Source: Escherichia phage vB_Ec-M-J
DNA: 64,000 nucleotides
Sequence record: OQ718158.1
Reading direction: 5' to 3' (one strand)
In this document: positions 3 to 21,611 of the stretch, piece after piece
Layout of the letters: each line of letters opens with the position of its first letter
Position numbering within the stretch: position 1 is the stretch's first letter
Program-made: the position numbers and the translations under genes
The notes under the pieces: generated by a model
Databases searched by the model: none
Told to the model about the DNA's origin: nothing
The model's input: the letters and a program-made list of their open reading frames with translations, nothing else

Positions 3-149
3 GAAGAATTCTTCCAAATGCAATGTGTGCTTGACACAAAAGGATTTGATGTGCTATTATTAAAGAATATACAGAAAGCTGTTAACGAATTAATATCCAA
101 TGACGAGTTAGGCAAAGTGAGGCTGTTCCATGATCTCGAAGTACAATGA
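3..149 (+). CDS. family-A paralog, 5'-truncated at window edge
   Basis: frame-3 ORF open from window start to TGA 147-149; translation begins EEFFQMQCVLD (family motif). Confidence 0.5.
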   Translation, partial: EEFFQMQCVLDTKGFDVLLLKNIQKAVNELISNDELGKVRLFHDLEVQ

Positions 150-705
150 AAGCAATGAGTACAATGAAATTCAGTACACCTACGCTAATGCAATCCTTAT
201 GGGACAAAAGTTAGCTTGTATTGTTGCAGCCTTATATAATGCACAGAAAGATTACAAGCGTCACATCCACAAATGTATTGGTATTATTCCATCGAAGTAC
301 AATACATATATTGCGTGCACGAGACATTTTGATAAACGATTCAATACACCTGATACCCCAAATGCCCATAGTGTTATTGGTCTTTTGGATTTTGCCCCTG
401 GTGCTGTTATTGGAAAGAATGATTTAGAGTACGCATGGTATAATAAAAATGCCCCGTTAGTAATGGTAAAATATGATACAGAAACGAACAAAGCAATAGA
501 GTACAATACATATAAATCAGAGGAAGAATTTTTCCAAGGTTCATTGCTTGTGCCAGTGCGTTTGTTATTTTATAATGTCATAATGAGTACAGTACACGAT
601 AGTCCATTACACAAGAATCACAAAATTAATTTCAATTTTTGTGCTTATGCGATTGATGGTGTTTATGAGTGCTTAATGGAGGTATTGAGTTATGAAGCTG
701 AATAA
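130..705 (+). CDS. hypothetical protein, family A
   Basis: 191-aa ORF; GAGG RBS upstream; motif EEEFFQGSLL. Confidence 0.65.
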   Translation: MISKYNESNEYNEIQYTYANAILMGQKLACIVAALYNAQKDYKRHIHKCIGIIPSKYNTYIACTRHFDKRFNTPDTPNAHSVIGLLDFAPGAVIGKNDLEYAWYNKNAPLVMVKYDTETNKAIEYNTYKSEEEFFQGSLLVPVRLLFYNVIMSTVHDSPLHKNHKINFNFCAYAIDGVYECLMEVLSYEAE

Positions 706-1033
706 TACATTTGATATTAAGAAGTTAAGAGAATGGTTTAATAGTATTGAAATTGACGCCATTCCTTATCATACATATGAACAAAGTGATTTACAAAGTA
801 TTGATATCAGTGAGTTGTACAAATATTATCAGAGTGCATTAGAGATGCATAAGTTATTTTTGAGTACAAATTTCATTCTAAATTACAATTTTGAGGAATT
901 TAATAATTATAATTTAGTACAGAAATATGTAGTAGCAAAGTACATGTACAATCAAGGAATTAAAGATTGCCTCGAATTCAATACCGTTCTTATTTTAGTT
1001 GAGGTAATTTTATGCACCGCATGTCTGATTTAG
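692..1033 (+). CDS. hypothetical protein
   Basis: 113-aa ORF overlapping the upstream stop; no family motif seen. Confidence 0.5.
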   Translation: MKLNNTFDIKKLREWFNSIEIDAIPYHTYEQSDLQSIDISELYKYYQSALEMHKLFLSTNFILNYNFEEFNNYNLVQKYVVAKYMYNQGIKDCLEFNTVLILVEVILCTACLI

Positions 1034-1509
1034 AGTTCAGTTTAGATGCAGCCTTTAAATTTGTTCACAAAATAGAAACAATATATCGTACATTATGTGC
1101 AATAACATCAGTATCAAAAGAGTTTGATGTTGGTGAAAGGTATCAGGTGTGGAATAATTCATTTTATAATAAAGAACATTCTGCGACGGCATTTTATATT
1201 TTAGCATTTAATCCCAGCAATTGTTACCCAGAGAAGCATGAACGTTATCCAAATGACGACATGTGGTTTGAGTACAAAGAAGATGCTGATATGTCGTCAA
1301 TTGTAGTTCCTGATGATTTTAATGCACAAGATTTAACAGAAGAGTGGTGGTTCCAGCAGAATTTAGTACATGATGATATTGATTTATTTTTCTATATTGC
1401 ATTTAAAATGCTTTATCACAACAATATAGTTAAAGAAAGTTTATCGTTTTCATGTCTATATATTGATGATTTGTACAATGAAATTCAAATAAACATGCCT
1501 GTATCGTAA
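1012..1509 (+). CDS. hypothetical protein, family A
   Basis: 165-aa ORF; GAGG RBS; motif EEWWFQQNLV. Confidence 0.6.
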   Translation: MHRMSDLEFSLDAAFKFVHKIETIYRTLCAITSVSKEFDVGERYQVWNNSFYNKEHSATAFYILAFNPSNCYPEKHERYPNDDMWFEYKEDADMSSIVVPDDFNAQDLTEEWWFQQNLVHDDIDLFFYIAFKMLYHNNIVKESLSFSCLYIDDLYNEIQINMPVS

Positions 1510-1581
1510 GATATGGGCTTTTTTTGTTTGACACGAGTACAAATGCATGGTACAATGTGTAATCATTTTAAGGAGATACCT

Positions 1582-2157
1582 ATGGAAAATTTTAAAATAC
1601 CAGATGATTTCAATTCAGTACAAGAGATTGTACACAAGGTTCATTATATTTTTAATGAATTAATTATTGCCAATTCATCCGGTATGCAAATTGAGTTAAA
1701 GGATATTGATAGAGAAGAAGTTTTTTTGGGTTCCCCAAATTCAATCATTCCTTTTTATGGTCAGGACCGTTTATGGTTCATGAGAGATACCCCAATTGAC
1801 AAATACAAAATACAAACAAAATCAGAGTTTTATTCTATTTTTGAATATCTTAATATTACATTACAAACACAAGATATAAATGCAATAAGTGCCATGAGTG
1901 CTGAGGAATATTTTCAGTACAGTACATTGCATAGTCCAGAAGAAATCTTTGTTGTTATGCTCGTTGCAAAATTGAGTACAGTTGATTTTGGGACGTACCC
2001 AAATAAATCATTCAAGATTATTATTCCTGCATTCGTTGATCTTTATGATTTCATTGTGCACAAGAAAGAAAGTACAGTGTACGATATGTATCGTTCAAAT
2101 ATCAGTTTATTTGCATCAAGTGCAGTAAATGCAGTGATTACAGGGGAATTAAAATGA
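1582..2157 (+). CDS. hypothetical protein, family A
   Basis: ATG 1582 preceded by AGGAG at 1571-1575 (ORF-track start 1513 lacks RBS); motif EEYFQYSTL. Confidence 0.65.
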   Translation: MENFKIPDDFNSVQEIVHKVHYIFNELIIANSSGMQIELKDIDREEVFLGSPNSIIPFYGQDRLWFMRDTPIDKYKIQTKSEFYSIFEYLNITLQTQDINAISAMSAEEYFQYSTLHSPEEIFVVMLVAKLSTVDFGTYPNKSFKIIIPAFVDLYDFIVHKKESTVYDMYRSNISLFASSAVNAVITGELK

Positions 2158-2762
2158 ACATAGATCAATTAATGAAGTACAGTACAAATACAATTCCAGT
2201 GCTAAGTAAAGCATTAGATGCATTCAATGCTAAGTACCCTGAAGGTTCAGAGTTAAATATTCCTTTTACCACAGAAGGGATTGTTGATACGTACATTGTA
2301 AACATCAGTAGTACAGGTATTGTTTTGAAGCAAAAGTACGGCGAAAGTGAATATTATGGATTGAAGCTGGATAATATTTCAGGAGAGAAGACACCTTATG
2401 AGTTTTGGGTTCCGAATAACATTGAGTCATGGAAAACAAATATTAATAAGAGAGACGAAAGAAATTTACCTCTTGTACAAAATAATGAAAAAAGAATTGA
2501 TGTATTTTATTATTACAGTACAGCCCAGTTTCCAGAAGAGATTTATTTAAATTCAGAGGTGCATGAAGATATTGAATCATTTTTCTTTCAGTTATCATTG
2601 GTACAGGATATCATGCCTGTGCAAATGTTCAGGGATGAAATAAATTTAGCGAAAGAGATTTCGGATATGTTACCTGAATTTAGTGTTCTTTATGGTAGTA
2701 GAGCTTTACCTGAAAATGTTTACAAAGAATTTATTTCCATTGTTAAAGGGTTGAATATATAA
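2154..2762 (+). CDS. hypothetical protein, family A
   Basis: 202-aa ORF, ATGA overlap with upstream gene; motif ESFFFQLSLV. Confidence 0.6.
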   Translation: MNIDQLMKYSTNTIPVLSKALDAFNAKYPEGSELNIPFTTEGIVDTYIVNISSTGIVLKQKYGESEYYGLKLDNISGEKTPYEFWVPNNIESWKTNINKRDERNLPLVQNNEKRIDVFYYYSTAQFPEEIYLNSEVHEDIESFFFQLSLVQDIMPVQMFRDEINLAKEISDMLPEFSVLYGSRALPENVYKEFISIVKGLNI

Positions 2763-2763
2763 T

Positions 2764-2958
2764 ATGACCGCCTATGATATCAAACAAAGGCATACGAAGT
2801 TTGATTTGTTCACATACCAATTCCACAATGATATAGTGAATTTTAACATCAATGCGTCCTTGCATCCTACATCACAAGATGATTTTGACAACAGAGTGCT
2901 TAACATCGTGGTGCTTTTGTGTTATAATCATTTCAGTGAATATTTTAACGCCAAATGA
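2764..2958 (+). CDS. hypothetical small protein
   Basis: 64-aa ORF filling the gap between family-A genes. Confidence 0.4.
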   Translation: MTAYDIKQRHTKFDLFTYQFHNDIVNFNINASLHPTSQDDFDNRVLNIVVLLCYNHFSEYFNAK

Positions 2959-2965
2959 GGCACAC

Positions 2966-3484
2966 ATGTATCAGGCCAAGTACAATACATCATATGCATT
3001 TGCACACAACATTTTGAAGATCATCAAAGCGTTAGAGGGTGGATTGCTTAGTCATAAGTACACCAAAGTAGGTGACAATTGGTTCAGAAATGATGATGAG
3101 TTCAGAAGTCATAAGATTGTTTACAGCAATAATTACAGTGCCAATTACCTTCAGGATGTTGCTATGTGCTTCGAATACGTGTTACAGTTCAGGGGTTCCA
3201 TCAGTCCTGATCTAAGAGAACACATGTACATTCGATACCTACCAATGCTTAAGGATGAGAAATCAATATTCAATTCAGTACACCACAGAGTACGAGAGAG
3301 AACATTCAGGGATATTTTAGAAGATGAAGCTGCATATTTCCAGCAATCATTGATTGATGCTCCTGATGTGTTACAGATGCAGAATTTGTATAATGTATTA
3401 GATGCGAACATCGATACGGATATCTTTTTTTCCTTAAGTGATTATGAAACATTTTTGGAAGATTTAAAGGAAATAGGATTATGA
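2966..3484 (+). CDS. hypothetical protein, family A
   Basis: ATG 2966 with GAGG RBS at 2957-2960; motif EAAYFQQSLI. Confidence 0.6.
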   Translation: MYQAKYNTSYAFAHNILKIIKALEGGLLSHKYTKVGDNWFRNDDEFRSHKIVYSNNYSANYLQDVAMCFEYVLQFRGSISPDLREHMYIRYLPMLKDEKSIFNSVHHRVRERTFRDILEDEAAYFQQSLIDAPDVLQMQNLYNVLDANIDTDIFFSLSDYETFLEDLKEIGL

Positions 3485-3825
3485 GTAGATTTTCAGTTTA
3501 TATAGTAAACGTCAGTAAAGATGGTAGTTTAATTGAATTTGATGTAGTTGATAACAATGATAATTCATATGGTATTAAGGTACAGGACAATGATGTACAG
3601 TTCAGTACAAGGACAAATTTTGAGAATCCAGTCCAAGTTCCGAATTTCATAGAAGATGAAGCTGCACGATTCCAACACGAAACGGCCTTTGATAATTTAG
3701 CGATGCATATTATTATGCAACAGAGTTTAGTTCAATTGCTTCAGGTATTCAGACAAAATATATATGTACATGAAGTGTCGATTAATGGCATTCAAAGTTC
3801 CGTTTTGTTCGGTACAAATATGTAA
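3481..3825 (+). CDS. hypothetical protein, divergent family A
   Basis: 114-aa ORF; degenerate motif EAARFQHETA. Confidence 0.5.
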   Translation: MSRFSVYIVNVSKDGSLIEFDVVDNNDNSYGIKVQDNDVQFSTRTNFENPVQVPNFIEDEAARFQHETAFDNLAMHIIMQQSLVQLLQVFRQNIYVHEVSINGIQSSVLFGTNM

Positions 3826-3835
3826 GGAAAGTACA

Positions 3836-4390
3836 ATGAGTTCAATGAGTTTATTAGATACATTAGAAAAAGACAGAAGTGCCATTAAGAGATTAAAAAA
3901 TCTTGTCCAGAGCATTGCGAACAACGCTGAGAAGTTCAGTGACAATCTTAGTATAGGTGATATAACCAGTACAGGAATAAAAACCCTGAAGTCAGATTTA
4001 TTAATTCATAAGGAAGATAAATTATTATTTGTATTGAGTTCAGATTTAATGGTTGCAAGTAATGGTTTCAATTCGATATCAACACAAGATGGTAGCACAG
4101 GATTATATCTATCACAGGGTGTCCAGACGAACGAACAAAAGTGTTTTAGTTCAGGAGTACAGAATCCCTTTAAGTTCAGTACAGAACAAGCTACAGAGCT
4201 TTTAGATGCTTCAGAAGAGATGTTATTTCAGTACAAAACGGTTCATACAGATTTTGAATTACGATGCATGTACGCTGTTAAGCATTATGTTCAGGAGTTC
4301 GAGAATTTAAGTTATCTTTTAGTTCGAACGAATACAAAGAACATTGGTGCATTAGAAGATTACATTTCAAAAGTTGTTAAAGGGTGCTAA
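3836..4390 (+). CDS. hypothetical protein, family A
   Basis: ATG 3836 after AGGAAAG; motif EEMLFQYKTV. Confidence 0.6.
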   Translation: MSSMSLLDTLEKDRSAIKRLKNLVQSIANNAEKFSDNLSIGDITSTGIKTLKSDLLIHKEDKLLFVLSSDLMVASNGFNSISTQDGSTGLYLSQGVQTNEQKCFSSGVQNPFKFSTEQATELLDASEEMLFQYKTVHTDFELRCMYAVKHYVQEFENLSYLLVRTNTKNIGALEDYISKVVKGC

Positions 4391-4399
4391 AGGGTGCTG

Positions 4400-4561
4400 A
4401 TGAAAGAGTTATTTGAAGAACAGTTCGATACATATGTGGATAATATTCTTTATTCTAGTCGTGCTAGTCAACGAGGAAATCGTGCTTACAACATAGATTA
4501 CCTATTAACGGTGCTGAGTTCACAGTACACCTACGCTGTGCAGAGGACATATTATGGATAA
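4400..4561 (+). CDS. hypothetical small protein (53 aa)
   Basis: short ORF not in the ORF track, ATG 4400 directly after a 9-bp tandem duplication; weak support. Confidence 0.3.
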   Translation: MKELFEEQFDTYVDNILYSSRASQRGNRAYNIDYLLTVLSSQYTYAVQRTYYG

Positions 4562-4757
4562 TTTTAGAGATGTTGCAAAGGAGAAGTTCAAGTGCAGTTT
4601 AGATTACGGTTTAAATGATTTTCTTACATGCACAATGTACAGGAATGATGATTATGAGCAATCCGTAATTTCGTTGCACAGATATTTCGAAATAATTTAC
4701 GCAAGATATCTTAGAAGGTTAGATGGGACAGGGGATTGGAATTATGATTACGTTTGA
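4554..4757 (+). CDS. hypothetical protein
   Basis: 67-aa ORF; GAGGA RBS 4543-4547. Confidence 0.5.
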   Translation: MDNFRDVAKEKFKCSLDYGLNDFLTCTMYRNDDYEQSVISLHRYFEIIYARYLRRLDGTGDWNYDYV

Positions 4758-4968
4758 AGAGCCGGAAGTGGTATATTGCTTTAGTGTGAAAGGTTTTGAA
4801 TACATGATGGATTCGATTTTGAAGGATACATATTTGGTTCAGATTGAAGTTACAGATAATACAGATAATGCATTACAGCGAGTATTGAATATATACGAGA
4901 GGACGAGTCGAAGGCTTTGTGCGATGAAAAGGATTGAAGAAATCAAGCTTTCTAGGCTGAATAAATAG
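4744..4968 (+). CDS. hypothetical protein
   Basis: ATG 4744 (MITFEEPE...) overlapping the upstream stop; GGGGA RBS-like. Confidence 0.45.
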   Translation: MITFEEPEVVYCFSVKGFEYMMDSILKDTYLVQIEVTDNTDNALQRVLNIYERTSRRLCAMKRIEEIKLSRLNK

Positions 4969-5174
4969 AGACGTTTCATTTTCACAGGCCGCAGGAGGGG
5001 GGGTCAAAAAAATTTTCGCTGAAAAACATGTTAAGGTATATGTTTAATATAAAGTTTTAAAATGTGTTCACAGAGTACAGTTCATGTTTCCTTAAACAAA
5101 AAAATACCCAGCCGCCGAACGTGCTCCTTATATTGGAGTTTACCTTATTAATTACAGTAGAGATTACAATTGAA

Positions 5175-5558
5175 ATGAAGATGCAAATAAAATATAATGA
5201 ATTTTGTGCAAGGACATTCATGTACACTGGTGAATTAGTTACGCACTGTAACTTATACAAGGGTGATTTAAACTACACAAGGGACAAGCTTATAAAATAC
5301 GAAAATGCTGACTTTTATTTGATGGATTTTAGTACTGGGTTTCATGGGATATCTATCGAGATGCCGGACTATACCGTACTTGATGATGCTGCACTGTTTC
5401 AGGAGGCATTAGTATTTGATAAGAAGTACATCTGTACATTAGAAGAGATAGTTGAAATCCAGCGTAGAATTAAATGTATTCACAGGGAATGTATAGATAT
5501 CTGGTGCAGGACTGGTGAGGCTGATTTCTGGAAATTTTTTAATCTAGGGGAAGAGTGA
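5175..5558 (+). CDS. hypothetical protein, family A (ELFQESL subfamily)
   Basis: start chosen by alignment to the next two paralogs (CNLYKGD); motif PDYTVLDDAALFQEALVFDKKY. Confidence 0.6.
   Translation: MKMQIKYNEFCARTFMYTGELVTHCNLYKGDLNYTRDKLIKYENADFYLMDFSTGFHGISIEMPDYTVLDDAALFQEALVFDKKYICTLEEIVEIQRRIKCIHRECIDIWCRTGEADFWKFFNLGEE
5361..5462 (+). repeat. nucleotide-level paralogous repeat, copy 1 of 3
   Basis: ~85% identical by eye to 5726-5827 and 6103-6186 (atgccggactata...gataagaagtac...). Confidence 0.6.
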
Positions 5559-5914
5559 TGGAATTTGATTTTGTAATATCAGTACATTCTTTTAAGAACA
5601 GTTTTCAGTACTTTTGTAATTTAAACAAAGGTGATTTAATGCACAGTGCAAATGAGTATATTCATTACACTCAGGGTAAATTTACATTCATTGATTACAA
5701 TTCATTACAGTATCCACATCAAGATATGCCGGACTATACAGTAATGGATGCCGCTGAACTATTTCAGGAGTCATTAGTATTTGATAAGAAGTACTTGTGT
5801 ACATTTGAAGAAGTAATTGCAATACAAAATGAAATGAAAGAGTATGACTCTTTGAATAAAGGCAATGTCAGTATTAATCAAGAATACAAATTCAATATAG
5901 GAATTCCAGAATGA
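5555..5914 (+). CDS. hypothetical protein, family A (ELFQESL subfamily)
   Basis: tandem paralog; motif PDYTVMDAAELFQESLVFDKKY. Confidence 0.7.
   Translation: MMEFDFVISVHSFKNSFQYFCNLNKGDLMHSANEYIHYTQGKFTFIDYNSLQYPHQDMPDYTVMDAAELFQESLVFDKKYLCTFEEVIAIQNEMKEYDSLNKGNVSINQEYKFNIGIPE
5726..5827 (+). repeat. nucleotide-level paralogous repeat, copy 2 of 3
   Basis: matches 5361-5462. Confidence 0.6.
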
Positions 5915-6255
5915 CATTTGATTTTTCTATGTTTATACCTAAGATTAGTACTTCACTGGAAGTGTATTGCAATCTTAACAAAGGTGATTATGAACACAAA
6001 ATGGATCAGTACATTAAATTTAATGGTTCTTACTTTAGCTTCATTGATTATCAGGCCAAAGGAACAGTTGTAGAAAATATGAAAGACTATGCAACTGTAC
6101 ATGGTGAGGCTGAAATATTTCAAGAGTCATTAATATTTGACAAGAAGTACTTGTGTACACTAGAGGAAGTTATTGAACTCCAACAGAAGATGAAAGAATA
6201 TAGAAGAATCTGCATAGAGACTGATTCCAAAGATAGGTATTGTTTTAAGCTATGA
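5911..6255 (+). CDS. hypothetical protein, family A (ELFQESL subfamily)
   Basis: tandem paralog; motif AEIFQESLIFDKKY. Confidence 0.7.
   Translation: MTFDFSMFIPKISTSLEVYCNLNKGDYEHKMDQYIKFNGSYFSFIDYQAKGTVVENMKDYATVHGEAEIFQESLIFDKKYLCTLEEVIELQQKMKEYRRICIETDSKDRYCFKL
6103..6186 (+). repeat. nucleotide-level paralogous repeat, copy 3 of 3
   Basis: matches 5400-5462 region (ttcaagagtcattaatatttgacaagaagtac). Confidence 0.5.
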
Positions 6256-6437
6256 ATAAAAAAGAACAAATGGAATCATTCATGAATACAATACTTCGAC
6301 GATTCGTAATTGATATTAGACATAACAACAGCATTAGGAATGATATGTACTTCGGTACATATGATATTAGTGAATTGTATATAGCTAATATTCACATGGT
6401 GTACCGAGATTATATCAAGACACAACACAGGAGTTGA
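6252..6437 (+). CDS. hypothetical small protein
   Basis: 61-aa ORF with ATGA overlap to upstream gene. Confidence 0.4.
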   Translation: MNKKEQMESFMNTILRRFVIDIRHNNSIRNDMYFGTYDISELYIANIHMVYRDYIKTQHRS

Positions 6438-6438
6438 T

Positions 6439-6909
6439 ATGAGTTTTTCAAGAGCATTAGAAATTGCTAAGTTAATTGATTTATGTAAAAAGGAAATAGT
6501 ACTCAATCGTCTCAATGGGTATCTATTCAAGGAAGGTAAAGCTTATTGTCGAATGATATACGATGACAGTAGTGAGTACATTCACATGTACGAAGAAAAC
6601 TTAGATTCTTCTGAAACAACACTCACTGGGTGTGATGTTAATCTGGAAGATAATTACATGTACTTCTGTCGTGATGCTGATATTTTAATACAATATACTG
6701 ACATTATAACTGGTGCAGCAGAAAAACATCTTCCGTATTCAGTACTGGATAATGACTGGGGAAGTGAAGAGTTCTACTTCCAGCAGAATACTATCTACGA
6801 GGAATATGTGCTTGACAAGCTTGTCATTCTGTGGTACTTTAATAATACCGATTGTCCTAGCTTCTATCTGGACTTGGATCTACTACGAGTTATTAAAGAG
6901 GATATATGA
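6439..6909 (+). CDS. hypothetical protein, family A (MSxxSAL subfamily)
   Basis: AGGAG RBS; N-terminus MSFSRALEIAK; motif SEEFYFQQNTIY ... LVILWYF. Confidence 0.7.
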   Translation: MSFSRALEIAKLIDLCKKEIVLNRLNGYLFKEGKAYCRMIYDDSSEYIHMYEENLDSSETTLTGCDVNLEDNYMYFCRDADILIQYTDIITGAAEKHLPYSVLDNDWGSEEFYFQQNTIYEEYVLDKLVILWYFNNTDCPSFYLDLDLLRVIKEDI

Positions 6910-7346
6910 GTTTAGCAAGTGCACTTAAACTGGCACACAAAATACATCACTTCCACGATAACATAAAAAGTGGTTTCTATGGTGATAAAGTAAGTGCATT
7001 TGGTAATGAGTATTATCTATCAGGTATAAAGACATACTCTGATGATATTTTACTTATGGGCCATGATAAAGACAATACTATACAGTACTCTTCATGTAGT
7101 CAATATACTAGTTTTTTTGTATATATTCCAGGTACTAAGATTACTTTTGACACATCAAATACACCTGTTGACTTCGGGATACTTGATGGGCCGTGGGGTA
7201 CTGAAGAGTATTACTTCCAACAGAGTCTTATTTTTAACCAAGAAATGCTTGATTCCTTGGTTGTTTTGTGGTACTTTAAGGAATTGAATTTTGAACCCTT
7301 CTTCCTTGACTGGGGAGCATGTGAATATTTAAGTACAGGGGATTAG
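6906..7346 (+). CDS. hypothetical protein, family A (MSxxSAL subfamily)
   Basis: N-terminus MSLASALKLAHK; motif GPWGTEEYYFQQSLIF ... LVVLWYFK. Confidence 0.7.
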   Translation: MSLASALKLAHKIHHFHDNIKSGFYGDKVSAFGNEYYLSGIKTYSDDILLMGHDKDNTIQYSSCSQYTSFFVYIPGTKITFDTSNTPVDFGILDGPWGTEEYYFQQSLIFNQEMLDSLVVLWYFKELNFEPFFLDWGACEYLSTGD

Positions 7347-7348
7347 TA

Positions 7349-7837
7349 ATGTCATTACAAAGTGCATTGAAAGAAGCAAAGAAGATTCATGAGTACATGA
7401 TTATGGTACAAGAAGGTTCAGTGCCTGGTGTGTATAAAACATCTGATACTGAATTTTTTGTAAAAGACCGCGACGATTATGATGAGTCAGAGATACATGC
7501 AGAAACGTTAGTACTACACACTGATACGGGTGATACTGATGACTGTGAATATCATATGTACAATCAATACATTAGTTATTGTAGAGATGAAGATATTATA
7601 ATTTACAGCCCTGATTACGATGATTATGACACAATCATTCCGTATTCAGTACTGGAAGGTCCGTGGGACAGTGAGGAATATTACTTCCAGAACAGTACTG
7701 TGTACAATGAAGAAGAATTAGATGTTATTGTAATTATGTGGTACTTTAAAAGTATTGGTTCTGGTAGTTTCTATTTCGATTATGAATACGTAGAGAATAC
7801 TGTAGGGGAAGATAATGTCATTACGAAGTGCTCTTGA
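7349..7837 (+). CDS. hypothetical protein, family A (MSxxSAL subfamily)
   Basis: N-terminus MSLQSALKEAKK; motif GPWDSEEYYFQNSTVY ... IMWYFKSI. Confidence 0.7.
   Translation: MSLQSALKEAKKIHEYMIMVQEGSVPGVYKTSDTEFFVKDRDDYDESEIHAETLVLHTDTGDTDDCEYHMYNQYISYCRDEDIIIYSPDYDDYDTIIPYSVLEGPWDSEEYYFQNSTVYNEEELDVIVIMWYFKSIGSGSFYFDYEYVENTVGEDNVITKCS
7631..7775 (+). repeat. nucleotide-level paralogous repeat, copy 1 of 2
   Basis: ~80% identical by eye to 8094-8233 (ggtccgtgggaYagtgaRgaRtattacttYcagaaYagtact...). Confidence 0.6.
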
Positions 7838-8258
7838 TAAAGCAAAAGAACTACAGGCATATATTGAAGATATTAAGGCTGGGAAGTTCGAAGAAGTATA
7901 CAAAGCCGAGAATGGTAACTACTACAAGGATTGTGATTTTGCTACAACTACAGTTATTCTTGGGTTGAATTCCAAAAGTCCCGCAGATTTTTCACAATAC
8001 AATCCAGATGCAGAATTTATCAGTTATGCTTATGGTGGTGAAATCCGTTTTTATAATCGCAGCAGACCTTTAAAATTGAACTTTGAAGTACTGAAAGGTC
8101 CGTGGGATAGTGAAGAGTATTACTTTCAGAATAGTACTTTGTATGATGATGAAGTACTAGATACTTTAGTTATTATGTGGTACTTTAAAAGTATTGATAG
8201 CACAAGATTTTATTTGGATTATGAATATGTACGTGCAGCACATAAGGGTAAACGATGA
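7815..8258 (+). CDS. hypothetical protein, family A (MSxxSAL subfamily)
   Basis: N-terminus MSLRSALDKAKE; motif GPWDSEEYYFQNSTLY ... IMWYFKSI. Confidence 0.7.
   Translation: MSLRSALDKAKELQAYIEDIKAGKFEEVYKAENGNYYKDCDFATTTVILGLNSKSPADFSQYNPDAEFISYAYGGEIRFYNRSRPLKLNFEVLKGPWDSEEYYFQNSTLYDDEVLDTLVIMWYFKSIDSTRFYLDYEYVRAAHKGKR
8094..8233 (+). repeat. nucleotide-level paralogous repeat, copy 2 of 2
   Basis: matches 7631-7775. Confidence 0.6.
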
Positions 8259-8569
8259 AATTCTTATACAGTATTCAGTACATTCCAGGTACAATTAGTT
8301 TAATGTATTTCTTCGATCATGATAATTTCCAGCACCTTGCCGTTAGAAGATGTAATGAATCTTTAATGATTGAATATCTTCACGATTGTGATTATATTCC
8401 CGACTTTCTTGAATGTGATTACAGAGATGATCATGAAACATTTCTTTTTCAGGAATCACTTATATGGGATAAGAGAATTAATTTTCATGCCTTAATTGAG
8501 ATACAAAAACAAGTGAAGTACTACTGGGATTACTTAATTACCCAAGAATATATAGAGATTGAAATATAA
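8255..8569 (+). CDS. hypothetical protein, family A (ELFQESL subfamily)
   Basis: 104-aa ORF; motif ETFLFQESLIWDK. Confidence 0.65.
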   Translation: MKFLYSIQYIPGTISLMYFFDHDNFQHLAVRRCNESLMIEYLHDCDYIPDFLECDYRDDHETFLFQESLIWDKRINFHALIEIQKQVKYYWDYLITQEYIEIEI

Positions 8570-9012
8570 TGTACGAAAGTGATCTTAAGCACGCTGAAGA
8601 ATTAGTTAATATAGTAAAGTTCTTTCAAAATAATATAAAGTACTTAGACTATAAAGGGGCATATATTAGTACTATAAGTGTTGGTACTGATATTCTAGGA
8701 TTAGGTAATGAATATAAGTACGAGTCACATGATTATGATTTGGAATTCAAGTACTTCGTATGGGATTCTGGAACTTTCTATTATATAGAGGAAGGTGGAA
8801 AATATTTTGAATTCACAGAAGAAGAAGTACTATTTTTAAATTCAGAAGATGCTTACTTCCAGTACAGTACTATATACCCAAATGGGGCGTTAAGAGCTTT
8901 AGTAGTTTTTAATGCATTCCTGAAAGAGAACTTTAATAATTCTATATTCATTGATTTAGATTATGTATATGAACTAAATCAGGTGATATATATGGAGTCC
9001 AGAGAAAAATGA
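8569..9012 (+). CDS. hypothetical protein, family A
   Basis: 147-aa ORF; motif EDAYFQYSTIY. Confidence 0.65.
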   Translation: MYESDLKHAEELVNIVKFFQNNIKYLDYKGAYISTISVGTDILGLGNEYKYESHDYDLEFKYFVWDSGTFYYIEEGGKYFEFTEEEVLFLNSEDAYFQYSTIYPNGALRALVVFNAFLKENFNNSIFIDLDYVYELNQVIYMESREK

Positions 9013-9455
9013 GTTATGAAAGTGCACTAAAAAAGGCTAATGATATTCTACGCGTTGTTCAGTTCTTAAAGGACTATCCTGATTATGTAGATGATGAACG
9101 AAGAGAAGTTTCTAATGGCACGAAGATTACAATTGATTCTTTATTTGACACTAGCAACGACAACTGTAGTACTATTGAATTAGCATACGATTATATTTCA
9201 TTGAACAGAAAATATGATGAAGTTACGATAGAGCGTCATGAGAATGAAGAATCTTTTAAAATTTCTGATATTTTATCTCTGAGTACAGAAGAAGGGTACT
9301 TCCAGGGAAGTACTGTTTATAATGAAGGAACACTTGACAATCTATGTACATTTAGTGTACTATATCAGAAGTCAGTACTGGATATATTTTATCTAGACAC
9401 TGAAAAACTTGATAGGTTAGTTGATTTCGTTACTATAGAAGAGGCATCCTTTTGA
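9009..9455 (+). CDS. hypothetical protein, family A
   Basis: N-terminus MSYESALKKAND; motif EEGYFQGSTVY. Confidence 0.65.
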   Translation: MSYESALKKANDILRVVQFLKDYPDYVDDERREVSNGTKITIDSLFDTSNDNCSTIELAYDYISLNRKYDEVTIERHENEESFKISDILSLSTEEGYFQGSTVYNEGTLDNLCTFSVLYQKSVLDIFYLDTEKLDRLVDFVTIEEASF

Positions 9456-9985
9456 GAAAAATTAACATTAATGATTATGATGCATTACAAGATTTATCAA
9501 AAAAGATTCGCACTATCGTACCAGTACTGAAAAAATGCAGTACTGGATTAATTGATCCTAGTACAGTTATTAGTGAGAAGTACGATTTCCATAAACTGTT
9601 ACAAGGGAATGGTGCATTCCAGAAGTGTGAGATACGTGAGAAACACGTCATTGATACATCATTGCTTTCAATTGGTTCAGCCGTTCATAAGAATGTTGTA
9701 TACCTTGAATCCAGATCTGAAACTATTCGACAGATGACTTTTAAGAAAAAGTGTACTGAAATTGACGTGTACACTATGATATGGGGTTATCCAGAGTTAT
9801 ATCGTACTATTAATATTCCTAAGTACAATTACAATTCATTTGAAGAACAGTGCTTTCAACTATCTTGTACTGATCCTGACTATGCTATTATTCAGTTCTA
9901 TATGGAATTACAGATGGCATTTAACAGTAATTTAAATATCAATTTATTAAAGGTTGATTTCGATGAAGTATTCAAAAACATTTAA
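9452..9985 (+). CDS. hypothetical protein, family A
   Basis: TTG start overlapping the upstream TGA, GAAGAGG RBS; motif EEQCFQLSCT. Confidence 0.55.
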   Translation: MRKININDYDALQDLSKKIRTIVPVLKKCSTGLIDPSTVISEKYDFHKLLQGNGAFQKCEIREKHVIDTSLLSIGSAVHKNVVYLESRSETIRQMTFKKKCTEIDVYTMIWGYPELYRTINIPKYNYNSFEEQCFQLSCTDPDYAIIQFYMELQMAFNSNLNINLLKVDFDEVFKNI

Positions 9986-10181
9986 TCGAATTGAATACAT
10001 GAGAACTGTGAGTGCAGTGTGGGACATATGGTTCACTACTAAACCAAAAATGGATTACCATGACTTTAAGCTATTGTTCTTCGTTGGCTCTAACAAACAG
10101 GATGTTGCAATGAAGGGTTATATTCAGCACTTACAGGAACTAATCCAGAAGAGAATATATGAAAATAATAGACCAAGATGA
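9954..10181 (+). CDS. hypothetical small protein
   Basis: 75-aa ORF; weak similarity to the next small ORF. Confidence 0.45.
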   Translation: MISMKYSKTFNRIEYMRTVSAVWDIWFTTKPKMDYHDFKLLFFVGSNKQDVAMKGYIQHLQELIQKRIYENNRPR

Positions 10182-10350
10182 TATTGCTAAACTATTCAAT
10201 ATATATTCTTCTAAAATGATGCAAACCGACTCATATAGTACTGAATTCAAAGAATTAAAAGTACTGATGTATTTGGGCACACAGTATCAGGAACAAGTTG
10301 TTAAAGAATATATTGATTCTTTACAGAAGGATATCCGTTATGTACAATGA
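10159..10350 (+). CDS. hypothetical small protein
   Basis: 63-aa ORF. Confidence 0.45.
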   Translation: MKIIDQDDIAKLFNIYSSKMMQTDSYSTEFKELKVLMYLGTQYQEQVVKEYIDSLQKDIRYVQ

Positions 10351-10894
10351 ACTTGACTTAGCATTTGAGCGTGTAAAAATCTTCATTGAAACTTATCTTA
10401 TGCATGAAACTATACTGAAAACAAAAGGAATATGGTTCACTGATAAATTTCTTACTATGGCTATGAGAGGTGGAATGAAACATCTGTACTGCACAGATAA
10501 TGCAAGAATTTCAGTACTGAATTATGATGAAAGTGTAGCATCCAGTACCAGTTTAATTTCTACATACAATGATAATGTTATTAGTATTATGTGCAATATG
10601 AATGTCCCATCTATTTCTGTATATAAAAACTGTGATAGTTCATTGGAGTACAAGATTGAGCAGTACTTATATCCTAACACAGAAGAAAACATCTTTCAAA
10701 ATAGTCTTATGTGGGATGATACATCTACTAAGTGCATATATCTTTATAATAAATTAAAAGAGTACATTGTTGATAGTTCAATTAGTACTGCTGTATTCAG
10801 TGTTACTGTTTTTAATGATAATCGTGAAGATATGAGTTATTACAGAGACATTGTAAGAATACATGCAATGTATAAGGATCTACTATGTTATTAA
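10340..10894 (+). CDS. hypothetical protein, family A
   Basis: ATG 10340 after AGAAGGA; motif EENIFQNSLMW. Confidence 0.6.
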   Translation: MYNELDLAFERVKIFIETYLMHETILKTKGIWFTDKFLTMAMRGGMKHLYCTDNARISVLNYDESVASSTSLISTYNDNVISIMCNMNVPSISVYKNCDSSLEYKIEQYLYPNTEENIFQNSLMWDDTSTKCIYLYNKLKEYIVDSSISTAVFSVTVFNDNREDMSYYRDIVRIHAMYKDLLCY

Positions 10895-11487
10895 ATGCAA
10901 ATAAATGTTGTAGTACTGAGGTTCATTTGTATTTTAAGAAATTAGTAAATGATATTATCTATATGCAAGAAATCATTTATCACAAAAGAATGGACTTAGA
11001 AAAAGCATTAGTTCAGTTCTCTTTTAATCTCGATGGTGATATATCGTTAGATGGTGATGGATTGCGTATAGCATTTGACGGTAATACAAATAGGGTTTTC
11101 TTTTGGATAGATAATAAATTATGTTCATCAATATGTCGTACTTTTTATAACCCTATTTCGGACTTATATCAATTGGTGTATTCTAAAGGTGCAGTTGAAG
11201 CATCATACGGTGATAGCTTTGCACTAGGGAAGAGTATCCCATATATGCAATCATTTGATATTGAATTAGTCAGTACTGATGAAGATGCAATGTTCACAAA
11301 TGATATAACAATGCAGCGTGAATCTGCAATGAGATATATTACAAATTCTATGCATACATTCTTCGAAAGAGCAGAATTTGATAATGTGTACATAGCAAAT
11401 GTAAATATTTTTACTGACCTTTGTCAGTTCTTGAGAAGTATTTTTGATTTCGATGAAAGCTATTGTAAGCTTTATACTGAGGTTTAA
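10885..11487 (+). CDS. hypothetical protein (possibly degenerate family A)
   Basis: 200-aa ORF; weak motif DAMFTNDITMQ. Confidence 0.5.
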   Translation: MLLNANKCCSTEVHLYFKKLVNDIIYMQEIIYHKRMDLEKALVQFSFNLDGDISLDGDGLRIAFDGNTNRVFFWIDNKLCSSICRTFYNPISDLYQLVYSKGAVEASYGDSFALGKSIPYMQSFDIELVSTDEDAMFTNDITMQRESAMRYITNSMHTFFERAEFDNVYIANVNIFTDLCQFLRSIFDFDESYCKLYTEV

Positions 11488-11492
11488 ATGCC

Positions 11493-11852
11493 ATGAATAC
11501 CATTAGTATTACGTACTACACAACGAAAAAATACGTTTGTTGTTTACTTTCATTAAAGACAAATGATGATATGTTTGAAATGGCGGCATATACATTAGGA
11601 TTATCCGAGGATGGTTTTCAATGTCATGAAGCGTACTCAAATACACGTGAAGATACAATTGATACTACTTTAATGCAAGAAGATGAGTTGTTTCAAGAAA
11701 GTTTAGTATGGGATAAAAAATACTATTGTGATTTTGATTTTCTTTGTTTAATCCAGAAAGAAATGAAAAGGATCTTCGACAATTATCCGGTGAAGAGATT
11801 GAGTACTAAGCCGGAGCAGTACAGGAGAATTTTATTCCGTTATGAAGACTGA
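11493..11852 (+). CDS. hypothetical protein, family A (ELFQESL subfamily)
   Basis: motif EDELFQESLVWDKKY. Confidence 0.65.
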   Translation: MNTISITYYTTKKYVCCLLSLKTNDDMFEMAAYTLGLSEDGFQCHEAYSNTREDTIDTTLMQEDELFQESLVWDKKYYCDFDFLCLIQKEMKRIFDNYPVKRLSTKPEQYRRILFRYED

Positions 11853-12180
11853 ATTAGTAAAAATAATGTACGCAACTCACACCAAGTTATTATTGGTTAA
11901 AATGGATTACAACAGAAAACATAATGAATTCTGTACATTAATCCGAAATGAGGAATCATTTACATTGCGTACAAATGATAAGCCAATGCTAACTATAAAT
12001 GATTTTTCAGGTTTAGATACAGGTGAATTGTTTCAGGAGTCATTAGTACTGGATAGTAGTATACATTTGGAAATTGAAGTACTACAACAGTACCAGATAC
12101 TTTTGAATCGTATTATGGAAAATTATCCATGTGAAGTTGGTGGACCAATGCAATTCAAATCAAAGATGTATGAACTATGA
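11842..12180 (+). CDS. hypothetical protein, family A (ELFQESL subfamily)
   Basis: motif TGELFQESLVLD. Confidence 0.65.
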   Translation: MKTELVKIMYATHTKLLLVKMDYNRKHNEFCTLIRNEESFTLRTNDKPMLTINDFSGLDTGELFQESLVLDSSIHLEIEVLQQYQILLNRIMENYPCEVGGPMQFKSKMYEL

Positions 12181-12187
12181 GGTTAGT

Positions 12188-12721
12188 ATGTTAGATAAAA
12201 TAAAGAACGAGGGAACTCTATACAATCATCTTAAGTTGGATACGTTCGAGGCAGCAATCAGTACTGCACAAGATATAATTGATATTATCAAGTACATTAA
12301 AGAAAATAAGTTAAAATGTGTGAAAACGCCAGAACGTACAATGTACAAAGATGACGACCTTCACGTATCAGTTGTTAAGCCAAAAGATAAGGATGGTAAT
12401 AGAGATTTCTATAATAACAGTGCACAGTATGAATGTGAATATGATCCCGAATTTAGAGGTGGATTCATGTGCTTCAGTAAAACAGATACTTCACATGTTG
12501 AGATACGTACATTAAAAGGTCTAGGTAGATTTGAGTTCATGGATATAGAACTAAATGAAGAAAACTACTTCCAACAATCATTACTTAATACTGAATACAA
12601 TTTAGGTGTACTATTCATGTACAAGTACTTATATGAGCACTTAAATGAAGACTTCTATCTGGACTTAGAAGATTACCATTTAGTATGGAAAGAAATGGTA
12701 GAACTTCGTGAGAACTCTTGA
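12188..12721 (+). CDS. hypothetical protein, family A
   Basis: ATG 12188 with GAGG RBS 12179-12182; motif EENYFQQSLL. Confidence 0.65.
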   Translation: MLDKIKNEGTLYNHLKLDTFEAAISTAQDIIDIIKYIKENKLKCVKTPERTMYKDDDLHVSVVKPKDKDGNRDFYNNSAQYECEYDPEFRGGFMCFSKTDTSHVEIRTLKGLGRFEFMDIELNEENYFQQSLLNTEYNLGVLFMYKYLYEHLNEDFYLDLEDYHLVWKEMVELRENS

Positions 12722-12747
12722 CACCCTCCAAATCTTTGTGATATAAT
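12718..12747 (+). promoter_or_regulatory. sigma70-like promoter (TTGACA-N18-TGATATAAT)
   Basis: -35 TTGACA 12718-12723, extended -10 TGATATAAT ending 12747, 34 nt upstream of the gene at 12781. Confidence 0.6.
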
Positions 12748-12780
12748 CTCTTTATATTAATTGTAAAGGGTTATATCACA

Positions 12781-13263
12781 ATGTCCAAAGACCTATCATT
12801 TAGCAATGCACAAAAAATCGCACAAAATATCATTAAACTTCATAAGTTCCTTTTAACAGTTAAAGAGAATATAATTCTCCCACGATGCACACTTTATGCG
12901 TACAAAAATTATTTGTCAATGAATAGCAATTTGTTGCATACTACAGATGAGAATTTCTGTGGTATTCGTGTACTTGACGATGCACCAACAGGGGATTTTA
13001 TCTCATATTGTTTCCATACATCTGATAGTTTTAAGTACTATCATCCTAGATTTAATGATGATGAATATGAATATGACACATTTAATGTTAGATCAGAAGA
13101 AGAATTCTTCCAGTACAGTACTTTGTACAATGAGAGAATCGTGTTTAGTTCTACAATTTTTACAGTACTTAAAGATGAACTCAATGACGCAGATGATAGA
13201 TTCTATATGGATTTAAACTTCGTAGATGAAATCATTGAGTACATGGAGAAAAATGGTCTATGA
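12781..13263 (+). CDS. hypothetical protein, family A
   Basis: motif SEEEFFQYSTLY. Confidence 0.7.
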   Translation: MSKDLSFSNAQKIAQNIIKLHKFLLTVKENIILPRCTLYAYKNYLSMNSNLLHTTDENFCGIRVLDDAPTGDFISYCFHTSDSFKYYHPRFNDDEYEYDTFNVRSEEEFFQYSTLYNERIVFSSTIFTVLKDELNDADDRFYMDLNFVDEIIEYMEKNGL

Positions 13264-13742
13264 TTACAACAGAATATGATTACGATGGTGTTTTAGAATT
13301 TGCATCTAACATTCATCGCATTGCAAAGGAGTTCAGAAGTCCCCAACCTTTCGGTGGAATGCCTTTTGGTGGAATGTTCCAATATGACCAATTCAGTTCA
13401 ACCAAAGGAAGACTTGCCTTTAAAAATAATAAGGGCAATCAAGTATATGCTGAGTTCTTTGACGATAATGACTTTCACTACAGAGCTGAATATATTTCAT
13501 ATTGCCAAGGGTCTGATTTGAAGATTAACATTGATACATTTAGAGATTCAGTGTTTATCCCTTATAGTGAGTTAGTTTTCATGACAGAAGAAATGTACTT
13601 CCAAGGGTCTTGTATTCATGATGCAAAAGTACTTAATGCTATATTACTTTATGGTGCACTACTTCATCATTACAAATACAAACAACGATTCTTTATAGAT
13701 TTAGTTGTATACCATCAATGCGTGGATTATTTGAATGCATAA
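13260..13742 (+). CDS. hypothetical protein, family A
   Basis: motif TEEMYFQGSCIH. Confidence 0.65.
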   Translation: MITTEYDYDGVLEFASNIHRIAKEFRSPQPFGGMPFGGMFQYDQFSSTKGRLAFKNNKGNQVYAEFFDDNDFHYRAEYISYCQGSDLKINIDTFRDSVFIPYSELVFMTEEMYFQGSCIHDAKVLNAILLYGALLHHYKYKQRFFIDLVVYHQCVDYLNA

Positions 13743-14097
13743 TACAACAACAATTCAGTACATGACGGATGGCAATGATTGCTTTGCTTCAAGATATGAA
13801 TTCATCAAGAACCATTTTGTAACCTATATCCCTGAATATAATCAGTTTTATCTACAGATTTACCAAAATGATTCATATATGAATGAGATATATTCTGAAA
13901 TAAAAATCCCTGATTATAGTACTTTATCAGAAGAGGAATTGTTTCAGGAGAGCACTGTCAATACTGAAGATGTGTACGAACTAATGGAATACCAGAAGGT
14001 ACTTAAATATTTCCATGAAGTTCAGGATATACAAATGGATAGTGTTAAAACGTGGAATTATAACACATACGAGGTAAATTATGTTCGAAATGATTAA
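13735..14097 (+). CDS. hypothetical protein, family A (ELFQESL subfamily)
   Basis: motif EEELFQESTV. Confidence 0.65.
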   Translation: MHNTTTIQYMTDGNDCFASRYEFIKNHFVTYIPEYNQFYLQIYQNDSYMNEIYSEIKIPDYSTLSEEELFQESTVNTEDVYELMEYQKVLKYFHEVQDIQMDSVKTWNYNTYEVNYVRND

Positions 14098-14494
14098 AAT
14101 TATGCAACGATGCATTGTTGACCAACATGGAATATATGGATATAGTTTAAGTGCAGCTATTGACAAAAACAAAACAACCTATGTAAGCTATAATTCAGTA
14201 CTTGGATTTGATATATTCATTGATGCCAACAATAAAATCAAACAAGCCAAGGATGTATCTATAATGACCCCTGATGAGCTATTTCAGTACAGCTTAGTTC
14301 TGCCCACCTGTATTGATTTACAACGCCTAGGAGCTATACAGAAGGTTTTACGCGAACATAAAGTACAACCAAATAAAATTACACACATTCCAGAAACATT
14401 CTACAAACCCATAGAAGTAGAAACACCTGATTATATGTTAAGTGATGATGAGTTCTACAAGAAACACTTCCCTGGTAAAGTTTGGAGAGATTAA
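14081..14494 (+). CDS. hypothetical protein, family A
   Basis: GAGG RBS; motif PDELFQYSLV. Confidence 0.6.
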   Translation: MFEMIKIMQRCIVDQHGIYGYSLSAAIDKNKTTYVSYNSVLGFDIFIDANNKIKQAKDVSIMTPDELFQYSLVLPTCIDLQRLGAIQKVLREHKVQPNKITHIPETFYKPIEVETPDYMLSDDEFYKKHFPGKVWRD

Positions 14495-14976
14495 TGAACC
14501 GAAAGTACAGAGAAACTATGAAGTTCGCTAAGGAGTGTTTAGAGACAGTTGATTTCATTTTCGATAACAAAGACTCATTGGGTCGCCACTTCGTAATTAC
14601 AAAGAAAGAAGATAAGAGATACAAATGTCAACGATTAGGATACAGTATTGAGTTCTCCTTAATGATTGATGGCATGATAAACTCCTTATATGAATGTGGT
14701 AAGACTGATTACATTTCATTTAGATCTTGGAGTGAACGTGTCATGTTCTTGACTCCAAATGGAGTTGTATATCCTTTTCTTGATGATTTATCAGAAGAAA
14801 GTTACTTTCAAAATAGTTTAATTTACACAGAAAAAGAACTCAAAATGCTATTCATTATGTCGTACTTTAAAAAGTACTGCAATTTTAAATCATTATCTTT
14901 TGAGATCTCTGCAATGAAAGTATTCATTAAAAATGTAAAAGAATTAAAGAGGATTTACGATGTACATAGAAAATGA
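14494..14976 (+). CDS. hypothetical protein, family A
   Basis: ATG 14494 overlapping upstream TAA, GGAGAG RBS; motif EESYFQNSLIY ... IMSYFKKY. Confidence 0.6.
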   Translation: MNRKYRETMKFAKECLETVDFIFDNKDSLGRHFVITKKEDKRYKCQRLGYSIEFSLMIDGMINSLYECGKTDYISFRSWSERVMFLTPNGVVYPFLDDLSEESYFQNSLIYTEKELKMLFIMSYFKKYCNFKSLSFEISAMKVFIKNVKELKRIYDVHRK

Positions 14977-16567: not shown

Positions 16568-16590
16568 AGACCCTTATGGGTCTTTTTGTG
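16568..16590 (+). terminator. rho-independent terminator
   Basis: hairpin AGACCC-ttat-GGGTCT followed by a T-run. Confidence 0.65.
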
Positions 16591-16598
16591 TTTAGTGC

Positions 16599-16627
16599 TT
16601 TACATGAGCATTCAGGTGTGTTATAAT
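16599..16627 (+). promoter_or_regulatory. sigma70-like promoter
   Basis: -35 TTTACA, 17-nt spacer, extended -10 TGTTATAAT; 28 nt upstream of the gene at 16655. Confidence 0.5.
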
Positions 16628-16654
16628 CGCTTTTAACAGAGTACAGGAGAAGAT

Positions 16655-19866: not shown

Positions 19867-19877
19867 CGGAGAACTAC

Positions 19878-21602: not shown

Positions 21603-21611
21603 GAATGAATT

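Follow-up and report, generated by a model that had tools for sequence, protein, structure and literature searches.

At positions 5175-8258 of a 64,000-nucleotide (nt) stretch of DNA from Escherichia phage vB_Ec-M-J (sequence record OQ718158.1; the whole stretch is called the window below), seven small plus-strand genes lie in two groups of similar neighbours, and the question that this locus raises is whether such groups are still being made by tandem duplication or descend from duplications that took place long ago. An earlier note on this DNA favoured the first answer; it described nested sub-arrays of near-identical tandem duplicates, with repeats long enough for unequal recombination and for copy-number variation between isolates. 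The genes are indeed tandem duplicates that have since diverged, and the sub-arrays are nested clusters of closer-related members within a far larger family, here called family A. The reading that we prefer, with a probability of roughly 0.6, is that they are old, diverged paralog clusters that vary by whole-gene insertion and deletion (indels) and encode early, diversified host-interaction proteins.

We name the short-type family A genes S and the long-type genes L; in the window these are S1 (5175..5558), S2 (5555..5914) and S4 (5911..6255), followed by L1 (6439..6909), L2 (6906..7346), L3 (7349..7837) and L4 (7815..8258). Their coordinates, frames and motifs are as the earlier note gave them: the three S genes share ..PDYTV.D.A.LFQESLVFDKKY.CT.EEV.., and the four L genes have in common the N-terminus MS..SAL..AK.I and the stretch GPW.SEEYYFQ.S..Y...WYFK. 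BLASTP comparison within the two sub-arrays gives E = 3e-14 to 7e-32, a similarity far beyond chance. A repeat finder also recovers the off-diagonal nucleotide repeats that such genes should produce, namely family D4, a conserved 117-nt block of S1 (5358..5474) with copies in S2 (5723-5839) and S4 (6079-6195) and identities of 80% and 68%, family D2, in which 145 nt of L4 (8087-8231) are 81% identical to 7648-7792 in L3, and the additional families D1, D3 and D5. Against the ~85% over ~100 bp given earlier for the S genes, the best 100-nt windows reach 84% (S1-S2), 81% (S2-S4) and 76% (S1-S4); among the L genes the best window of L3-L4 is 84% identical, and the other five pairs peak at 67-73%. 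Over whole genes the paralogs are far from "near-identical", with 61-75% nucleotide and 33-46% amino acid identity (46% for S1 and S2, 43% for L3 and L4), and the longest exact strings that they have in common are 23-25 nt. Two extra pairs that had been put forward are similar to each other, but more weakly than the members of the S and L sub-arrays: the genes at 11493 and 11842 are 31-33% identical (BLASTP E 3e-6), and those at 19285 and 19878 are 38% identical (E 2e-5).

Synonymous divergence between the paralogs (dS, Nei-Gojobori method) is 1.0-2.4, which is at or near saturation, so that neither this value nor the nucleotide identity is that of recent duplicates (above ~90% identity, with low dS). 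The ratio of nonsynonymous to synonymous divergence (dN/dS) between adjacent paralogs, proposed earlier as a check, can be computed (0.22-0.52), but it is uninformative because dS is saturated, and dN/dS between orthologs was used in its place. As a measure that is robust to saturation we compared the use of the same codon at identical degenerate residues with the expectation from codon usage. The resulting codon-identity ratio is 1.05-1.23 for L pairs, 1.10-1.52 for S pairs and 1.02 for distant pairs of the family; the L cluster is thus essentially saturated, and the S cluster is somewhat younger yet still old.

When did these duplications take place? The window phage is an Asteriusvirus (a 121Q/PBECO4-like jumbo coliphage), and 35 GenBank phage records match window positions 5000-8600, all of them from Asteriusvirus-type jumbo coliphages or Salmonella relatives, with WPEC3 and WPEC5 the best matches (97.5% identity). 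Ten related loci were compared with the window gene by gene. The window paralogs have one-to-one orthologs across the genus, and in every relative that carries them the orthologs of L1-L3 are 84-100% identical and those of L4 68-100% (L1, 84-99%, with dN/dS 0.08-0.48; L2, 85-99%); the orthologs of S1 and S2 are 73-92% and 81-97% identical, respectively. In phage A4, L1 and L2 are 89% and 96% identical to those of the window, the gene at the position of L3 is only 59% identical to L3, and the gene-by-gene comparison found no ortholog of L4. Even within the conserved 117-nt block, orthologs from different phages (S1-S1, S2-S2, S3-S3 and S4-S4) are 84-100% identical, while paralogs in the same genome are 49-81% identical. 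Because orthologs are always closer to one another than paralogs are, also in this block, the duplications predate the genus. Wherever ortholog dS is at least 0.05, dN/dS is 0.07-0.53, which is purifying selection, and the few ortholog ratios that exceed 1 are due to only one or two substitutions.

The orthologs also bear the marks of exchange. Relative to fEgEco12, dS is 0.47 for S1 and at most 0.15 for the neighbouring genes, and such sharp gene-to-gene variation of dS against the same phage shows allele exchange between phages. S1 is a mosaic hot spot: it is only 73-76% identical (dS ~0.47-0.52) to its counterparts in phages that match the window at 97-100% in the flanking genes, but 92% identical to that of WPEC3, and it looks like an allele replacement by inter-phage recombination. 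S1 may begin instead at ATG 5220, which is the annotated start in WPEC3 and 121Q.

Both sub-arrays belong to one lineage-specific family with ~45-47 tandem, co-oriented genes per Asteriusvirus genome. Starting from L1-L4, an iterative hidden Markov model (HMM) search settled on 30 window open reading frames (ORFs), S1, S2 and S4 among them (recruited at E<1e-3); all 30 are on the plus strand, and none of 92 minus-strand control ORFs was recruited. About 40 window ORFs show the motif [ST]-[ED]-E-x-[YFLH]-F-Q-x-S-[TL]-[VIL], as do all seven S and L genes. In an alignment of 38 window paralogs the mean column identity is 13%, and the Phe and Gln of this motif are the only invariant residues. Direct profile-profile comparison of the S and L types (hhalign) gives E 3.6e-5 and a probability of 71.5% over the strand-plus-motif region. 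Counts with the family profile are 38 in the window, 47 in fEgEco12 (26-72 kb), and 45 in each of the 121Q and A4 loci. In the window the main array, defined by iterative HMM, motif and alignment, occupies 130..23858 on the plus strand and holds ~36 genes that carry the motif, in most of which the stop codon overlaps the start codon of the next; two outlying members are at 35899..37163 on the same strand. Synonymous codons at the invariant residues follow the background (TTT 21 and TTC 18 for Phe; CAG 23 and CAA 16 for Gln), and since they vary so freely the constraint on the motif is at the protein level; a DNA- or RNA-level motif is ruled out by the same codon usage.

PHROGs divides the family among separate function-less groups that include 15629, 9317, 12674 and 32253, and does not record the unifying F-Q motif or the superfamily relation. 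By full-length HMM match the S genes fall in PHROG 15629 (E 1e-33 to 6e-55; S1, 5e-52; S2, 6e-55) and the L genes in PHROG 9317 (E 6e-50 to 9e-63; L1, 7e-53; L2, 6e-55), and a further short-type member directly 3' of L4 (8255..8569, plus strand) in PHROG 32253. Searches of Pfam gave nothing at E <0.02 and none reaching a curated cut-off, and NCBIfam gave nothing above its curated cut-offs. In the literature that we found on Asteriusvirus, RaK2, CBB and jumbo-phage genomics the family is not described, and only an abundance of paralogues is mentioned. Family A therefore appears to be undescribed and to be without a recognisable fold (below), although the kind of phenomenon is already known.

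Outside Asteriusvirus, the RaK2-like Klebsiella phage RCIP0023, whose polynucleotide kinase is 65% identical to that of the window, has ~30 ORFs with a TEExYFQxST motif at the syntenic place upstream of RNA ligase 1, 25 of which are HMM matches at E<1e-3. Since RCIP0023 holds the family syntenically, family A is older than the separation of these genera. When 5.8 billion proteins were searched with a word index, the L profile found 39 clusters and the S profile 24, nearly all from E. coli records, ~350-kb phage-type contigs or metagenome contigs. An exhaustive HMMER search of 1.84 billion representatives with the family profile gave only 128 matches at E<=1e-3; the remote ones carry the same motif, and those with names come from the divergent Asteriusviruses A4 and JNE01. 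One HMMER match, P0046 (773 amino acids), was rejected as a spurious repeat protein, and a tblastn search of the GenBank phages with two remote metagenomic matches found none. A family A member of phage A4, A4_348 (locus 1855-2391), which has the motif LSPEEYFQESLVQD, is annotated "DNA ligase", and this label is very probably a mis-annotation.

Family A proteins are small (~100-230 amino acids) and mostly acidic. AlphaFold2 models of one protein of each type were made. The L3 model (42-sequence alignment) has a mean predicted local distance difference test (pLDDT) score of 87.2 and a predicted template modelling (pTM) score of 0.83, and runs from an N-terminal helix through a seven-stranded sheet, a short helix, helix 109-117, helix 121-135 and a strand to a C-terminal helix; helix 109-117 carries SEEYYFQNS, and the 10-residue blocks over 101-120 have pLDDT 96-97. 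In the S2 model (pLDDT 84.6, pTM 0.81) five strands and a short helix precede the F-Q helix (66-75), which is followed by another helix (84-100) and a strand; the terminal helices are absent. Compared by the order of their elements, the two proteins are predicted to share one architecture, in which a beta-sheet is followed by a short helix, the F-Q helix, a long helix and a beta-strand. Identity between L3 and L4 is 12-40% over the N-terminal 100 codons and 64-80% over the C-terminal 50, so that the helical core is conserved and the sheet variable; on the models, the beta-sheet half would be hypervariable and rich in indels, and the C-terminal helical core, with its invariant Phe-Gln, conserved. 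Sequence profiles against PDB gave no matches for L and E of at least 0.019 for S, and PDB fold comparison gave no match to any entry. Foldseek against BFVD matched only uncharacterised proteins of 121Q, SP27, RaK2, Serratia phage BF, GAP32 and an Erwinia jumbo phage; the RaK2 matches are six, with nearly consecutive accessions. L3 is the most acidic member (isoelectric point (pI) 4.05, net charge -28), and we compared the family with DNA mimics of the Ocr/ArdA type. As a DNA-mimic signal the acidity of the family is only marginally above background: the median pI of the family is 4.9 against 5.5 for the window background, one member is basic, and there is no PDB fold match.

Does the number of these genes change, and where? 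Across the ten relatives the short-type genes number 1 to 5 and the long-type genes 4 to 5, the differences seen being between isolates. The window and TH47 have the order S1-S2-S4-gp61-L1-L2-L3-L4, where gp61 is a 61-amino-acid gene (6252..6437, plus strand) that is not of family A and that synteny places between the sub-arrays. WPEC3, fEgEco12 and CMSTMSU have S3 added between S2 and S4; in Turkey3, S2 is preceded by two additions, a truncated fragment of S2 and another family member, X; 121Q and BF17 have S1-frag-X-S2-S3-L0-L1..L4, and PBECO4 and EC.P1 have S1-S2-S3-L0-L1..L4. A4 has one clear S-type gene as well as a 108-amino-acid gene that resembles 8255-8569, and then gp61, L0, L1, L2 and one L3-like gene. 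Thus gp61 accompanies S4 in the lineage of the window and is replaced by L0 in 121Q, PBECO4, EC.P1 and BF17, while A4 holds both. In CMSTMSU (MH494197, a record flagged UNVERIFIED_ORG) the genes of the region are fragmented into numerous short ORFs, and L3 and L4 are joined in one; this looks like frameshift sequencing errors rather than biology.

Three of these differences can be mapped to junctions. In alignments with WPEC3 and Turkey3 the absence of S3 is a clean gap in the window of one 367-bp gene unit, and because S4 of the window begins with the S3-type codons ATGACA and continues as S4, the crossover is placed in the gene start ATG-nnn-T[A/T]TGATT that the two genes share; the S4 of the window would then be the product of a precise 367-bp deletion of S3. 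Gene X is bracketed by a direct duplicate, ~85 nt long, of the 5' end of S2, the substrate or else the footprint of a repeat-mediated event. In A4 the starts of L0 and L1 share an identical string of 27-28 nt (CACAGGGGTTGAAATGAGTTTAGAAAG), and recombination there yields exactly the gp61-to-L1 junction of the window. The junction repeats are thus 8-28 nt long, with one of ~85 nt, and lie at gene starts, and 0/3 mapped junctions fall in the conserved block. Copy-number variation mediated by repeats, as had been proposed, is therefore upheld, but the repeats used are the similar gene starts, not the ~100-bp blocks that were to have been its substrate, and what the events take out or exchange are old genes. 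The "extra" genes S3, X and L0 are 29-60% identical to the nearest window paralog, and so are as diverged as other members. Differential loss is most parsimonious, because S3, L0 and gp61 occur in divergent lineages, and the simplest account of the differences between isolates would be that old genes were differentially lost or replaced.

The position of the locus and its expression signals bear on what the products may do. The genome of fEgEco12 is linear, with mapped ends and a direct terminal repeat of 20,993 bp (PMC13070987). Window position 5000 corresponds to fEgEco12 position 37,054 and the region spans 37,054-41,007 there, which with the mapped ends puts the start of the window ~32 kb from the left physical end; family A begins at fEgEco12 position 27,270, ~6 kb inside the terminal repeat. 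The genes of the region are all on the plus strand and the majority overlap their neighbours by a few bases. The top-scoring sigma-70-like sites, the last three of them on the plus strand, fall in the few intergenic gaps of the array: one at 31-60, one at 1528-1556 directly after a terminator-like hairpin at 1497-1518, a perfect match (TTGACA-18-TATAAT with TG, 12/12, extended -10) at 12718..12747, and one at 16599-16627 after a terminator-like hairpin at 16566-16585. One predicted transcription unit, which stops short of the promoter at 12718, holds the S and L genes. In the related phage CBB the corresponding region has been proposed as early on the same grounds (PMC5259590). In the published virion proteome of the relative phAPEC6, 0/62 virion proteins lie between gp347 and gp549, where L0 is gp442c, and no product of family A was thus detected there.

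Some details of these signals deserve mention. A promoter match at 5170-5198 was rejected, as it overlaps the start of S1, recurs only in WPEC3 among the scanned relatives and is probably due to chance. The 207-bp gap upstream of S1 has a G7 run and then an A7 T4 run at 4985-5015 (GGAGGGGGGGTCAAAAAAATTTT). The hairpin and promoter at 1497-1600 lie inside an automatically called ORF, 1513..2157, in which AAGGAG precedes ATG 1582 (MENFKIPDDF); the real start of this ORF is probably ATG 1582. In the gene at 9009-9455 the motif codons TAC TTC CAG GGA AGT ACT form a perfect 8-bp inverted repeat (9295-9314) that was flagged as terminator-like, and it is probably coincidental, since the variable residue there is Gly (GGA).

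A second tandem family, of ~70 amino acids with the motif G-T-x-[YF]-Q-E, has 27 consecutive genes in fEgEco12 (21,091-27,280, just inside the terminal repeat), of which 26/27 match each other by BLASTP, and in the window two of its members (9954-10181 and 10159-10350; HMM E 3e-7 and 2e-15) lie scattered among the family A genes. A third, small paralog cluster at 30934-32337 encodes proteins of ~90-105 amino acids with QFTYK-type N-termini, four neighbours of which match by BLASTP at E 1e-7 to 6e-5. Downstream of the arrays are genes for ClpP (49671-50366, E 1e-41), a second, weakly matching ClpP-like protein (53301-53909, E 4e-4), a Sir2-family protein (55085-55837), a Nudt16-like Nudix protein (55834-56385) and a PIN-PhoH fusion (57076-58515); the PhoH-like protein is virion-associated in phAPEC6.

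The history that we favour is then as follows. Duplication preceded the radiation of the genus, each copy being kept since by purifying selection. Copy number changes by recombination between short direct repeats, which are the similar ribosome-binding-site and first-codon regions of neighbouring paralogs, and exchange of alleles or cassettes between co-infecting phages is a second route of change. The genes would be transcribed early, by host RNA polymerase with sigma-70, as long translationally coupled operons, and their products would stay in the cell as a diversified repertoire for interaction with the host, in host takeover or anti-defence, with the conserved core as a scaffold and the variable sheet giving each paralog its own target. 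Diversified early host-interaction proteins are the most likely role by analogy. Several points weigh against parts of this account: its functional part is argued from analogy; the structures are predictions; the acidity of the family is only slightly above background; promoter-like matches in the window are not enriched (106 against 119 +/- 11 in shuffled controls), so that the promoter argument depends on position and not on number; no conserved promoter was found in the 4968-5175 gap directly upstream of S1; absence from the virion is known from the proteome of one relative, in which low-copy ejected proteins could be missed; and the direction of the indels, loss or gain, comes from parsimony across 10 genomes without a dated tree.

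Two other accounts of the similarity between neighbours have to be weighed. If duplication were ongoing and recent, with the ~100-bp blocks of high identity as substrates for unequal crossing-over, local identities of 81-84% over 100 nt, copy numbers that differ among relatives, and a synonymous identity of S1-S2 and S2-S4 at 1.4-1.5 times the saturation expectation might all be expected, and all are observed. Yet paralog dS is at least 1, no pair exceeds 46% amino acid identity or 23-25 nt of exact match, each copy has a separate ortholog lineage that is one-to-one across the genus and under purifying selection, no mapped junction is in the block, and no genome examined has a recent extra copy; this account is already largely refuted, and we regard it as improbable. 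Concerted evolution, in which gene conversion between neighbours would keep the C-terminal block similar at the DNA level, might be suspected from the proportion of synonymous differences (pS) of 0.23-0.33 inside the S1-S2 block against 0.55-0.9 outside it, and from the codon-identity ratio of 1.5. This contrast is exaggerated, though, by the inflation of Nei-Gojobori pS where amino acids differ, the L pairs are at saturation, and conversion since the divergence of the genus is ruled out by the closer similarity of orthologs than of paralogs in the block itself; this account too we regard as improbable. The earlier observation is in this way partly confirmed and its interpretation partly supported.

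The remaining alternatives concern the proteins. The string E-E-x-Y-F-Q-x-S resembles the cleavage consensus of the potyvirus NIa (tobacco etch virus, TEV) protease, E-x-x-Y-x-Q-(S/G), and cleavage there would separate the N-terminal from the C-terminal part of each protein; in its favour, the L-type motif conforms to E-x-x-Y-x-Q, G stands at P1' in three members, and the phage encodes proteases (ClpP). The motif, however, is in a helix in both models (109-117 in L3, 66-75 in S2), with pLDDT above 90 in the most confident part; P1' is variable (E, Q, N, Y, L, H, M), and only a minority meets the consensus; most members carry L, F, H, I, M, Q or E in place of Y at P3; a search, not an exhaustive one, revealed no 3C/NIa-like protease; and ClpP does not have such sequence specificity. 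With the motif in a confidently modelled helix and its key flanking positions degenerate, a protease site is very unlikely. The proteins might instead be internal to the virion or ejected from it, like the polymorphic internal proteins of T4, their variation reflecting the restriction that is met at DNA entry; a polymorphic, cassette-like locus and small acidic products would suit this. It too has very little chance of being correct, given that none of the phAPEC6 virion proteins maps to gp348-548, that inspection of the translations by eye shows neither a T4-type prohead-protease leader nor a cleavage motif, and that position and promoters fit early better than late expression. A bolder version of the host-interaction account, which we hold only tentatively and think doubtful as a whole, makes family A a phage "multigene family" in the sense used for African swine fever virus (ASFV) and poxviruses: ~47 early effectors would share a single alpha+beta scaffold not seen before, whose F-Q helix would dock all members on a common hub (either some machine of the host or an enzyme of the phage, for example the ClpP of 49671-50366) and whose hypervariable sheet would recruit different host defence or housekeeping proteins. 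If that were true, RaK2-like jumbo phages would possess an arsenal against the host that is modular, is shuffled by recombination and helps to set host range.

How does family A, as we prefer to read it, compare with known systems? Its closest analogues would be the ASFV and poxvirus multigene families and the hyperplastic early regions of T4-like phages. ASFV MGF110/360/505 and the poxvirus terminal families consist of dozens of diverged, co-oriented tandem paralogs of small proteins near a genome end, with whole-gene gain and loss between isolates, individually conserved members and a proposed role in host range or immune evasion. Family A is like them in its tandem diverged paralogs of one orientation near a genome end, its whole-gene copy-number change and its conserved members; it is unlike them in belonging to a bacterial virus, in its unrelated proteins and in its one short invariant F-Q motif, and a host-range role is here suggested by analogy. 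The poxvirus "genomic accordion" (K3L amplification) produces recent, near-identical copies under acute selection; family A resembles it in having tandem arrays whose copy number is changed by recombination between repeats, but its copies are ancient (dS is saturated), each has its own ortholog lineage, and near-identical copies are absent. The hyperplastic early regions of T4-like phages are clusters of small genes under early promoters, mostly unrelated ORFans, and the genes of the polymorphic internal-protein (ip) locus of these phages encode virion proteins. Family A shares with these loci the clustering of small genes, content that varies between close relatives, and cassette exchange through short conserved flanks, and differs in that ~47 members are of one family and none from the region was detected in the phAPEC6 virion proteome. 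Expansions of the same kind have been reported in other jumbo phages: Bacillus phage G has ~35 zinc-ribbon genes (PMC7824862), CBB has 22 paralogous ORFs (PMC5259590), and RaK2 is described as having "nearly 10% paralogues" (PMC3622015). Family A is very probably covered by the statement on RaK2, but none of the papers that we found and read defines the family, its motif, its size or its copy-number dynamics.

The general caution to be taken from this locus is that a local identity of 80-85% over 100 nt between neighbouring genes can be purely the protein-level conservation of ancient paralogs. For these 350-kb phages, ~7-8% of whose genes belong to family A, the family is now defined by a motif and a profile, two confident structure models that have no PDB relatives are available, and a block of "hypothetical proteins" becomes a tractable target for functional work. 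S3, S4, X, L0 and the 61-amino-acid gene are naturally missing in some phages and so are dispensable among isolates. Asteriusviruses are in development as therapy against pathogenic E. coli, and to know whether this variable block governs host range or defence evasion would be of practical value.

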